Source of the DNA: Escherichia coli
GTDB taxonomy: Bacteria; Pseudomonadota; Gammaproteobacteria; Enterobacterales; Enterobacteriaceae
Strand: one strand, 5' to 3'
Assembly (NCBI RefSeq): GCF_009931435.1
Contig: NZ_CP043414.1
Length of the DNA: 64,000 nt
Shown here: positions 29,178-33,811 of the stretch, one piece after another
How the letters are laid out: each line of letters starts with the position of its first letter
How positions within the stretch are numbered: the stretch's first letter is position 1
Position numbers and translations under genes: made by a program
Notes under the pieces: model-generated
What the model saw: only the letters and a program-made list of their open reading frames with translations
What the model was told of the DNA's origin: nothing
The model's database searches: none

Positions 29178-32100
29178 TCAGAACGACCAGTTCGCACCAG
29201 CCACCGCGTTCCATGGCGATTCCACACCGGCACCATGGCTATACCCCACCCCGAGATGCCCGCTTAACGAACTGCTGAATGAGGCTTTAATACCTGCCTG
29301 GTATATTCCACGTCTGCCCGACAAATCATTGACAAAATTACCGTCATTATTCACTTTCACCCGGTTATCATCGACAAATTCTTTGCGCACAGCCGCCTTC
29401 AGCCACGGCTCAACTTCCATGCCGTTCCCCAGACGCATGTTGTAACTCAGCGTTGCGCCCAGTTCACGATATATACTGCGGGTATCGACTGATTTCGATT
29501 CCATACCATTGGATAAATGATATTCGGGGTTATCAGCGGTGAACCCCGTTAACGATGCATACGGCGTCAGGTTCCAGTTACCATCGGTAAATCGCATCCC
29601 GGTTTCAATGTGACCGCCCAGCCCGTTGCTGCGATAACTGCCGTTGGCGGCTCCACCGCTGCTCATTTTACCGGCTACGTTACTTTCAAAGCGGTTCAGC
29701 TTCACGATACCGTCCAGATAGAAACCACTTTCATGTTCCCAGCTGACATAGCCCCCCAGAGAATAACTGCCCACACTGCCATGTCCTCCACGATCAAAAC
29801 CGATATGTGAATGGGAATAACCCATAAAAGCGCCCAGCGTAGCAATCCCCTCAGGAATACCATTACGGCTATCGATCCCCACCGTCATTCCGGTCAGCGT
29901 CTGCTCAAACCCGGCACCCGCATCGGTGGTGACATTATTACGGGTGTTATACGTCGTCCCCCAGACATTATTGTTGTGTGGACTCGCTTTCATTATGTTC
30001 AACCGCTCGCGAATACTGTTTAGCTCAGCATCAAAGACCAACGGTAATGTTGCTGCCATATTGAGTACGGCTGCCGTAGAAGGCGTGATGCGTTTCTCCG
30101 GGACGGGTGTCGGCGTTGGATCGGGAGTCGGGTCTGGTTTCGGATCCGGTTTTGGGTCTGGTTTTGGATCCGGTTTCGGATTTGGGTTGGGGGCCGGGTT
30201 GGGTTTGACATCATTGGTCAGGTTCCAGTTGCTGTTGCCGTCGCTTTTCAGGACATACTCATAGGTCCCAAGATCAACGAAACCGCCGGTATTACCCAGC
30301 GTAAACGAAGCATCCCCTCCCCCTGTTTTCACCAGCGTCATCGCGTCGTCAGACTGAGGGCTGACGCCGGTATCCTGAACAAAGATGTTAAAATTGCCAG
30401 TGGCGTTGTTGTTGACGACCAGTTGATCGCCCCGGGAGCCTGCAACGTTGGTATGCAGGTAGAAATTACCGCTGCCGGAAAGTTCACTGGTGGTCAGCGT
30501 ATTGTAGATACCGTTAGTTGTGGCAGGCGCTGCTGTTTGTGCTGATAAATAAACATCACCGTCGTTGAGGAGCAAACTGTTTACTCTATATTCGCAGTTG
30601 CTGGTGCCTGCACAGGAATTATTGCTGTTAAGCCAGACACTGCCCCGGCTGGCAGCCGTCAGGTCGGCAAGCGTCGTATCGACGCCATTTCCGATAGTTA
30701 ATGTCGCGCTATCGGTAATCCGGCCCCCCCCTTCAAGTTTAACTGGCGTAACATTATCCCGTGGCGTCATTAACGACAGGCTTCCTGTCGCGCCACTGAC
30801 CGATGCATCCGCCAGCGTACCTGCGTAGACGATTGCCGTCCCGCCAGCGACCTGCAGATCTTCTGCCCGGGCCAGAGCCTGAAACTCATCTTTTGACCGA
30901 CCAAGGGTATATTGCCCACCGGAATTAACCTTTGTGGCGAAGTCCTGACCCAGGTTTTGCATTGCCCCACCGTTGCCAACCGTGGAATCGCGAGCTTCGG
31001 TACCTGCTAATACCAATAAATTACCGCCATTTTCCAGCAGCACATTGGTCGCTAAATTTCCGGCAATGGAAAAGGTGCCGTACTGGTGAGTACCGCTGAT
31101 TTCAATACCGTTAGCCGTGCTCGTCTGGAGAGCGGCACCGCTGTTCTGGATGATATCTGTCGCTTTGCCATTATCGTTGACTGTCAGCGTACCGCCTTCA
31201 TTAATCGTTGTTTTTACTGCCTCACCGTTAGCCGAAACTGTTTGTATTCCGCCGTCGTTAATCGTTGTCTCATTCGCCACACCCTCGACGATTTGTTCAC
31301 CGCCGGTAAGCATCGTGCCAGTCGCAGTGGCTTTTGTTTTGACGATCTCCCGTCCGCCCGCATTGACCTGTGTTTTGGCGGAAGTGGTGTCTGACTCCAC
31401 GGTTAACACGCCGCCATTTGCCAGCAGGATATTGTTCGCCGCATCCTGCTCGATGCTGAACGCGACGCCATCAGCGCGCCCTGGCTACTCTGCTGTATCC
31501 CCGTAGCGCTGCCTTTCTCCCGCACATCGAGTGTGCCGCCGTCATTAAGTACCGAGTTTTCAGCCAGACCGCCCTCATTAACTACCTGTGAACCGCCATT
31601 AATAATGGAACCTTCCGCTGTCCCGTTTGCCATAATTTGTTGCAGGCCAGAGACGATATCGGTATTGATCGCCTTACCATAATTCTGAACGGTTTGCGTG
31701 CCGCCTTTGATGTGCGTTTTATCTGTTGACCCACCATCAACAATTTGTTCACCACTTTCGATATTTGCCTCAGTGGCTAAACCATATACCGTTTGCTTGC
31801 CACCTTTGATATTTGCTTTATCAGAAGTGGCACTGGCATATATTGTTTGGGTGCCCGCACTATTGAGTACAGTGCCAACATCTTTTCCATAAACATCCAT
31901 TTTGCCGTTGGCATTAATAATCGTATCAACTGCCCGGGAACCAGTAACGACTGTTAATGAGCCAGCGTTTTCCAGCACTACATTTTTAGCTTCTGAATTC
32001 CTGATGTAGAAAGCATCACCAAAACTGTTGGTTCCTTCGATAAGTGTTCCGGAAGTCGTGGAAGCAATTAATGCGCCGCCGGATTGTTGCTCAACATGCT

Positions 32101-33811
32101 TAGCCTCACCACCGTCCTGAACCTCCAGAACGCCACCATTATTAAGTCTGGTGGTATCTGTTTTAGCCTCCTTCTGGACAATCAGCTTACCGCCAGCATC
32201 AACGGTAGTATTTTTCGCCGTGGTTTTAGCCACTACCGTCAGTTCGCCGGTATTTTCCAGCACAACATAATTAGCCTCCCCTCCGGTAATAGTGAAGTGA
32301 GAGAGCTTGTTGTATCCTTCAATATCAGTCCCTGCGCCCGTGTTGGCAACTAAAGCACTGCCCGTCTCCTGGTTAACCCCATGTGCGATACCACCGGTAT
32401 AGACAATCAGCGAGCCTCCGGCGCTAATATTGCTGCCAGTTGCCGTACCATCTTTCTCAACAACCTGCCGGCTCCCGGAGGAGATATTTGTCGTGTCAGC
32501 TTTCCCGCCGCTCTTGATATTTTGTGTTCCGCTGTTGATATTGGTTCCCGTGGCAATACCATGATTATTTATATTCTGTGTGCCACCATTAATTATGGTA
32601 TTTGTCGCGTTTCCGGCTACGTCCATGGTTCCGCCGATATCTATTCGGGTCGCATCAGCTTTAGCATTCGCTAAAACTGACATTGTTCCTTTATCTTTAA
32701 TAATTGTCTTGTTTGCCGAACCATATACGTCTAAATGACCACCGTTTTCCAGCAACACATTGTCTGCCACGTTATTGTGAATAGAGAATGCCCCTTCACT
32801 ATTCGTACCGCTCACCGTCGACCTGTCAGTCATTGCTTTTAAAGCCGCGCCATCGTGCTGGGTAACATTCGTTGCCGTGCCCTCTCTAACATCAAGCACG
32901 CCACCGGAATATATTTCAATAACATTCGAGGTGCTCCTGCTATCAACAATTTGCGTCCCACCAGAATAGATCGTGGTAGTGTGCGCCGTTGACGTGTTTT
33001 GCAGCGTCTGCATTCCTCCATTTTTAATGGTGGTTATTTGTGCAGTGCTTGAATCAACATCCTGTCGACCACCATCTATTGTGGTGTCCAGCGCATGGCT
33101 CTTAATTGTTCTTTGGTCACCTCCATTTTTAATGATAGTGTTTTCTACAATACTCGAATCTACATACTGTCGGCCCCCATCTATTGTTGTGTTCGTTGCC
33201 AGACTTCCTTGTGTGATGTTTTGAGAACCAGATGTATTTATCGTCGTACCGTCAACATGCCCCTGAGCTGTTACTGTTTGTTTACCACCATCAATGACAG
33301 TCCCGTTTGCTCTCCCTCCTTCGACGTATGAATTACCATTCTTAATTATCGTGCCATTGCTGTTACCATCCTTATAAATGTACTGATTGCCACCCTCGAT
33401 TAACGTGCCATTGCTGGTACCACCGTTATAAACTTGCTGATTGCCACTCGCGATTATCGTACCGCTAGAATTCCCACCATTATAAATTACCTGTGTACCC
33501 CCATGAAGGATTGTATTATTAGCTTGCCCCTGATAATTGTTATGGTTTGCTACATCTTGTTGTCCACCCATTTCAATAATACTTCCATTAGACACCCCAC
33601 CAAATACAGTCTGGTGGCCGTGATTAATGATATGAGTATCATTAGTTGTCCCCCGTTCATCTACTATTTGCTCGCCATCCACAGTTTCACCATTTACGAT
33701 ACCAGTAACGATTGATGTGAAAGCAGCCTCTCCAGGCTGGGCATATATCAAGGCAGATATCAATAAGGAAAGTACTGAACGGCGAAAATAATAGCGACTG
33801 GTCCTGTTCAT
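29178..33811 (-). pseudogene. AIDA-I/pertactin-type autotransporter adhesin, frameshifted (two ORFs 33811..31403 and 31409..29178)
   Basis: Signal peptide MKFMNRTSRYYFRRSVLSLLISALIYAQPGEA; long passenger domain of repeated G/T/N-rich beta-helix units (...NGGTQ..., ...DGGxQ...); Pro-rich linker PNPAPNPNPKPDPKPDPKPDPKPDPTPDPTPTP; C-terminal beta-barrel ending ...AVAGANWSF; frame break near 31455..31480 where the repeat pattern loses about 10 residues. Confidence 0.8.
30105..30210 (-). repeat. Coding tandem repeat (Pro-Asp-Pro-Lys/Asn-Pro linker) inside the autotransporter
   Basis: Plus-strand tandem units ggatccggtttt / gggtctggtttc encode PNPKPDPKPDP... on the minus strand. Confidence 0.7.

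Follow-up and report, generated by a model that had tools for sequence, protein, structure and literature searches.

A split autotransporter gene between minE and ymgG

The window analysed here is a stretch of 64,000 nucleotides of Escherichia coli DNA (contig NZ_CP043414.1 of the RefSeq assembly GCF_009931435.1), in which two long open reading frames (ORFs) adjoin on the minus strand between the genes minE and ymgG. According to the ORF list of the window, they occupy positions 31403..33940 and 29178..31409. A preliminary description, made from the sequence alone, had read the two as one large AIDA-type autotransporter broken by a local deletion or frameshift in its passenger, and both alignment and Pfam agree with this view. 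The split gene is flanked by minE (28546..28812, plus strand) and by ymgG/ymgD (34415..35098, plus strand), with minC, minD and minE lying on the one side and ymgG, ymgD, ymgF and pdeG on the other. Judging from this min/ymg synteny and a shared 3' end, we identify the locus with that of the K-12 pseudogene ycgI (b4521), which is likewise positioned between minE and ymgG/ymgI.

The 5' ORF (31403..33811, minus strand) begins with the annotated ATG at 33811, which coincides with the annotated start in intact orthologs, and terminates with a stop codon at 31405-31403. Pfam assigns five stretches of AIDA repeats to it (PF16168, E=1e-95). Its product of 802 aa is composed of a Sec-type signal peptide, ~780 native passenger residues and an out-of-frame tail of 22 residues (MASRSASSRMRRTISCWQMAAC). 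The predicted signal peptide (33725..33811, minus strand) reads MNRTSRYYFRRSVLSLLISALIYAQPGEA followed by AF, and shows, as judged by inspection of the translation only, basic residues in its n-region, then a hydrophobic core, and at the cleavage site an ending that resembles A-x-A.

The 3' part of the gene (29178..31484, minus strand) is read in a shifted (-1/+2) frame. This frame is open from 31484, where it reads PGRADGVAFSIEQD, and its earliest possible start codon is a GTG at 31409 that is preceded by a weak Shine-Dalgarno-like sequence. It encodes the remainder of the passenger, an autochaperone, a linker and a beta-barrel, and it is devoid of a signal peptide. In Pfam terms, it carries three AIDA stretches, Pertactin (PF03212) and the Autotransporter beta-domain (PF03797). 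The pertactin-like autochaperone is formed by residues 276-398 of the 3' ORF (30216..30584, minus strand; E=8e-45, with a match to the pertactin structure 1dab), and the C-terminal beta-barrel translocator of the 12-strand type by residues 482-721 (29247..29966, minus strand; E=7e-46, with matches to BrkA and Vag8). Tandem Repeats Finder (TRF) and a peptide comparison among alleles delimit a Pro-rich linker, KPNPAPNPNPKPDPKPDPKPDPKPDPTPDPTPTPVPEK, at 30092..30212 on the same strand, whose core corresponds to a tandem repeat of 12/24 nt at 30116..30181 (TRF). This fits the earlier proposal of a linker encoded by a tandem repeat at 30105..30210. The linker carries one change that is private to the window, D to A at 30193.

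Joining both window ORFs yields the complete domain set, as seen in an intact ortholog of 1558 aa with nine AIDA stretches, Pertactin and the Autotransporter beta-domain. The protein of ~1540 aa with signal peptide, beta-helical repeats, Pro-rich linker and beta-barrel that had been proposed initially is therefore in good agreement with Pfam and inspection. In NCBIfam, the 3' ORF reached 323.6 bits with the autotransporter barrel model TIGR01414 (cutoff 16), and the strand-loop-strand repeat model TIGR04415 scored 224.8 bits (cutoff 30). Solved chains of Ag43, TibA, members of the AidA family, pertactin, BrkA (3qq2) and Vag8 (7akv) match the corresponding parts of the protein, with the passengers of Ag43, TibA and the AidA-I family doing so at E values of 1e-24 to 2e-30.

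Type Va autotransporters are represented here by their C-terminal translocator barrel and, by inspection, their N-terminal Sec signal peptide. The arrangement of signal peptide, passenger and barrel on one chain is kept in the orthologs but broken in the window. As the frame shift at 31479 splits the chain, the window copy is best described as a pseudogene of the type Va autotransporter family. The features of the AIDA-I-type group, which resembles the self-associating autotransporters (SAATs), are also present, namely a passenger of AIDA repeats and a pertactin-like autochaperone. With the SAATs AIDA-I, Ag43 and TibA, the window gene shares AIDA/strand-loop-strand repeats (PF16168), a beta-barrel and an autochaperone of the pertactin type. 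It differs from them by scores far under the equivalog/exception cutoffs for AIDA-I and Ag43, since the intact ortholog obtained 282.6 bits with the AIDA-I model (NF033176) and 328.8 bits with the Ag43-Cah model (NF033177) against curated cutoffs of 1200 bits; moreover, the intact orthologous loci have no annotated adjacent heptosyltransferase gene. Judged by its sequence, the window gene is a pseudogenised classical AIDA-I-type autotransporter with YpjA/EhaD as its nearest relative. The intact protein is already contained in RefSeq (e.g. WP_250777696.1), named only 'AIDA repeat-containing protein'.

A 43-bp deletion in the fourth passenger unit

The lesion was defined against the gene found at the same locus in strain 100248, which has a coding sequence of 4677 nt for 1558 aa. 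In a MAFFT alignment with a 5-kb query, the window differs from this reference by 28 substitutions, 27 of them coding, and by a sole indel, a gap of 43 bp. The gap lies between window positions 31479 and 31478, within the interval 31455..31480 to which the change of frame had been assigned before, and it is identical against all 18 orthologs and the two near-clonal relatives described below. Alignment and microhomology analysis place the junction at 31475..31479 (minus strand), with an ambiguity over a copy of CGCG. The intact sequence reads CCAGGG/CGCGTTGGTGGCAACCACCAGGGCGACGCGGGTCACAGGGACA/CGCGCTGATGG across the junction, and the deleted block is bounded by an exact 4-bp direct repeat, CGCG, which sits within a 12-bp imperfect direct repeat (CGCGYTGRTGGC, 10/12 identical). 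Assuming a uniform base composition, junctional homology of at least 4 nt is expected in ~1.6% of random deletions. The junction is marked by the k-mer AGCCAGGGCGCGCTGATGGCGTCG.

At the protein level, the passenger contains five homologous units of the form ..G.AL.....(14-15 aa)..F.I......N..LEN.G.L.V, and the deletion costs the fourth of them 14 residues and 1 nt (VATTRATRVTGTRA). The preliminary description was thus right in that one repeat unit is shortened, while its estimate of about 10 missing residues was too low. The intact sequence ...IQQSSQGALVATTRATRVTGTRADGVAFSIEQD... is changed to ...IQQSSQGAL, from where translation runs into the out-of-frame tail, and the two frames overlap by ~80 nt (31484..31403). 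Loss of a protein repeat unit by slippage between units does not describe this event, because the deletion took place between short imperfect direct repeats whose two copies occupy different reading frames.

The window gene has in common with slipped-strand contingency loci that a surface adhesin gene is put out of frame by a change in length. Known examples of such loci are homopolymer or tetranucleotide tracts in adhesin genes of Neisseria and Haemophilus. The idea that the gene might be a phase-variable adhesin, switched reversibly ON and OFF by slipped-strand mispairing, could draw on the internally repetitive passenger, on the length-variant alleles at the min locus and on one ortholog with an independent +2 frameshift in a C-run (see below). 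However, the junction region (31403-31490) contains no homopolymer, no short tandem repeat, no invertible element and no slippery heptamer of the type X XXY YYZ. The window thereby differs from contingency loci in the absence of a simple-sequence tract. Furthermore, the length of 43 bp does not correspond to that of a repeat unit, the copies of the microhomology are out of frame with each other, and the OFF junction was found in none of the more than 2,800 genomes with the segment, as judged from their top-ranked matches. As the deleted 43 bp are unique sequence, they could not be regenerated by slippage, and the lesion is therefore not reversible by this route. Taken together, phase variation of this kind is extremely unlikely. 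The only homopolymer of at least 8 bases within the gene is a G8 run at 30724..30731 (..LEGGGR..), which is in frame in the window. This run is present in 9 of 19 alleles, the others having GGGGTGGT instead. The Dam/OxyR phase switch of Ag43 is unrelated to the 43-bp lesion.

We also considered that the gene might be split and still functional, either through -1 ribosomal frameshifting, through reinitiation or through fragments that act separately. The overlap of the two frames would favour reinitiation, as its GTG (31409) shares bases with the stop codon that ends the first ORF (GTGTTAA), an arrangement that can permit termination-reinitiation. Programmed frameshifting was rejected, since the overlap contains no slippery heptamer. 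A 3' product made by reinitiation would lack a signal peptide and be unable to get to the outer membrane, the 5' product has no translocator, and the repeat unit of the passenger would in any case be short of 14 residues. A functional split gene is thus very improbable.

Privacy and age of the deletion

To judge whether the lesion is shared, we compiled 18 complete E. coli genomes in which this locus holds an ortholog of the window's type (98.8-99.4% identity across 5 kb), and aligned all 18 orthologs. The 43-bp gap was found in none of these 18 orthologs. In 17 of them the gene is intact and encodes 1558-1560 aa (4677 nt, or 4683 nt in two strains). The remaining one, from strain 24A16CRGN010 (L013, NZ_CM148325.1), carries an unrelated +2 frameshift, CCC to CCCCC, in the region of the beta-barrel (alignment columns 4046-4047). 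Either the gene was inactivated there for a second time, independently, or the homopolymer was misread in sequencing. The two-ORF state is hence not fixed in the species, which answers the comparison with orthologs that had been proposed at the outset.

When 5,426 complete E. coli genomes were searched with a 201-bp query centred on the junction, 2,838 of them gave matches, which lay at the min locus and at ypjA. All top-ranked matches consisted of two separate pieces that together spanned 244 bp, i.e., with the 43 bp present; a perfect match to the junction in a single piece would have topped the ranking. A diagnostic 24-mer of the junction gave no matches in GTDB representative genomes and none in JGI metagenome contigs. 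Exact-protein look-ups of both truncated products, employing three start variants, returned no record. This is in line with a private allele but carries little weight, as other start codons may be chosen by gene callers.

Through an exact sequence match of the PdeG protein of the window, we obtained two near-clonal relatives, L022 (OZ038830.1) and L023. Both are 99.92% identical to the window over 14 kb, from 45634 to the junction, and in each of them the gene is intact, with 1558 aa. With respect to the 18 orthologs, the window gene shows ten private substitutions, six synonymous and four non-synonymous, and the alignment to these orthologs revealed no second disabling lesion. Since relatives are intact, the deletion is private and the sole lesion, and most of the few private substitutions are synonymous, the sequence data support an inactivation that is recent and strain- or lineage-private. 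The preliminary preference for a recently inactivated gene over an ancient one is borne out by the same observations. A pseudogene of great age, or a pair of genes that is fixed in E. coli, might be expected at a known pseudogene site, as most E. coli share the 344-bp ycgI remnant of K-12. Yet, the K-12 lesion is a different one, a deletion of 4.3 kb, and intact ORFs are found not only in the orthologs and in L022/L023 but also in about 400 short-form alleles. Together with the single lesion and the synonymous excess among few private changes, this leaves hardly any room for an old or fixed state.

Some observations weigh against a simple dating of the event. The divergence between the window and L022/L023 jumps from ~0.04% (45634..32100) to ~0.9% at ~32069 and remains high to at least 25667, so that the part of the gene that includes the deletion is the more diverged one. 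From its start within the autotransporter gene, the high-divergence tract extends across minE, minD and minC and beyond. Position ~32069 marks an edge of allelic homologous recombination, ~600 bp 5' of the deletion. Because of this different recombinational ancestry of the 3' part, L022 and L023 do not strictly date the deletion, and it may have come with an imported DNA segment. A homolog search with the 802-aa fragment was uninformative on truncation elsewhere, as the 8,000 word-sharing candidates that were scored were dominated by repeats. Finally, the presence of two near-identical paralogs makes an assembly error or the placement of a wrong paralog conceivable, which is taken up in the next section. 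That the deletion coincides with the recombination breakpoint was also considered; this was rejected in view of the distance between the two.

Even so, we are highly confident that a YpjA/EhaD-like autotransporter gene at the min locus was recently inactivated by one 43-bp deletion in this strain, a reading built on demonstrated parts (the identity of the gene, its domain set, the exact lesion, the privacy of the lesion and the intactness of its relatives). The intact protein of ~1558 aa consists of a signal peptide, AIDA repeats that form a beta-helical passenger, the autochaperone, the Pro-rich linker and the C-terminal beta-barrel. Deletion between the short imperfect direct repeats with their 4-bp microhomology probably occurred by replication slippage or by microhomology-mediated deletion, and the lesion is mechanistically ordinary. 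The loss of 14 codons and 1 nt from the fourth passenger unit shifts the frame and uncouples the two halves. The 5' product, possessing a signal peptide and no translocator, would presumably be exported to the periplasm and degraded there, and the 3' part, having a translocator and neither a signal peptide nor a convincing start, would be left unmade or remain cytoplasmic. Type Va secretion requires that a single chain carries the signal peptide, the passenger and the barrel. With the chain split, the adhesin is thus not expected on the surface of the cell, and the strain should be scored as being without the min-locus adhesin. For annotation, the two ORFs are better recorded as one frameshifted YpjA/EhaD-like autotransporter pseudogene than as two genes.

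Relation to ypjA and to the K-12 ycgI remnant

Overall, the min-locus gene and ypjA are about 93-96% identical at the DNA level and alike in architecture and length. In strain 100248, a BLAST comparison of the two loci (L001 and L002) showed that the paralogous stretch begins 377 bp before the start codon and extends 9 bp beyond the stop. The two genes of this strain are essentially identical from about nt 1200 on (3' 3.5 kb, ~100%), and the loci differ in the first ~1 kb, which encodes the N-terminal passenger and is 54-88% identical to ypjA. YpjA/EhaD (ypjA of K-12, ehaD of enterohaemorrhagic E. coli) thus has the same architecture and length and a paralogous region of 377 bp upstream, while the window gene differs from it by its locus (minE/ymgG), by the divergent first ~1 kb and by its disruption. 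YpjA was reportedly found by Roux and coworkers in 2005 to be cryptic in K-12 under laboratory conditions. Over the last 2.29 kb, copies from both loci of three genomes are intermixed and do not group by locus. As far as can be read from these sequences, the min-locus gene would be a paralog of ypjA or a gene-conversion chimera rather than an ortholog, and the intermixing indicates either ectopic gene conversion between the min locus and ypjA or a recent copy. In a review, YpjA is grouped with the biofilm-associated AIDA/Ag43/TibA-like autotransporters (PMC9289746).

This close similarity bears on the question of whether the deletion might be an artefact of assembly or consensus, the gene being really intact or the deletion belonging to the ypjA copy. 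The 3' 3.5-4.3 kb of the gene are nearly identical to ypjA in related genomes, and for this reason the short-read draft assemblies L024-L028 end inside the gene at the ypjA-like repeat; in addition, the deletion junction was seen in no other sequence searched. On the other hand, a clean loss of 43 bp with microhomology at its ends is untypical of a sequencing or polishing error, and the flanks of the junction are collinear with the ortholog of strain 100248. Nor is the window noisy in indels, as a flank of 22 kb compared to a relative shows three 1-bp indels only, all of them outside ORFs. We therefore regard an artefact as improbable. A similarly small probability is assigned to a cassette-like behavior, in which gene conversion from ypjA could repair the 43-bp lesion, or the lesion could be copied into ypjA, rendering it slowly reversible. 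If true, this reversibility would depend on an intact ypjA in the genome of this strain. As the min-locus gene trades sequence with ypjA and breaks short-read assemblies, calls of adhesin presence or absence are error-prone at both loci.

The preferred reading, a recent inactivation of the min-locus gene by the 43-bp deletion, also connects the window to K-12. There, ycgI aligns at 94.6% identity to window positions 29522..29178 together with the downstream flank. The K-12 locus lost the sequence corresponding to window 33841..29522 in a single deletion, so that 344 bp of the gene are left, whereas the window gene is short of 43 bp only. The majority of the 5,426 genomes match ~14% of the query and are thus K-12-like. 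The ycgI remnant of K-12 derives from a full-length ypjA-like gene that is intact in a minority of strains, and the window lesion is a further step of decay at a locus already reduced to the remnant in most E. coli.

With a query anchored in the min flank, about 425 genomes were found to carry a large gene at the min locus. A gene-based query had counted only 18, as shorter alleles were hidden behind their own ypjA matches. In about 400 genomes, the large gene is of another type than that of 1558 aa. Two sampled alleles of this kind, from JNE25-001 (L029 2467-5835) and P31_YH1_02.21 (L030 2467-5781), are intact and encode 1122 and 1104 aa, respectively. Two internal segments of the passenger, corresponding to nt 360-1104 and 1698-2261 of the full-length form, are missing from them. 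Their (NP)n linkers comprise 64 and 46 residues, respectively, and the Prokaryotic Genome Annotation Pipeline (PGAP) names them YpjA/EhaD. By sequence comparison, these short alleles represent an in-frame length polymorphism of passenger and linker. The earlier suggestion that the linker may vary in length accordingly holds for the gene family (46 vs 64 residues in other alleles) but not for the window's own type, among whose 19 alleles the KPDP-type linker is invariant.

A cluster of 13 substitutions at window 32603..32705 separates the window from most orthologs and is common only to the min-locus copy of strain N96, isolated from a Tibetan pig. The cluster had been considered as a conversion patch private to the window, which was rejected as N96 has it too. 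In a base-by-base alignment, the min-locus copy of strain 100248 equals ypjA at most positions of 32603..32705, which suggests a small conversion patch in that strain.

Upstream of the gene, 33812..34188 (minus strand) belongs to the segment that is duplicated between the min and ypjA loci, as seen in the BLAST comparison of strain 100248, and holds short ORF fragments resembling 'ATPase'/ymgJ. This stretch presumably contains the promoter; in a scan for promoters and terminators, promoter-like sites were no more frequent than in shuffled sequence. Downstream, between the convergent genes minE and the autotransporter gene, lies a GC-rich hairpin, CCCGCCGTAACTGGCGGG, with a T-run (29082..29099), which may serve as a common terminator of both.

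The region between ymgD and ymgF varies as well. In the window (35099..35273) it is without the ycgH autotransporter gene, and the gap is likewise short in strain 100248. In K-12 the place is taken by the ycgH pseudogene, and in strains that carry the short min-locus allele by an intact autotransporter gene, of YcgH or of the ECIAI39_1904 family. Farther away, an IS21-family element is located at 45635..47584, with istA (46476..47498) and istB (45697..46479) both on the minus strand, and accounts for the many plasmid matches in the flank search. At this site, the insertion is absent from all relatives examined (L021-L028).

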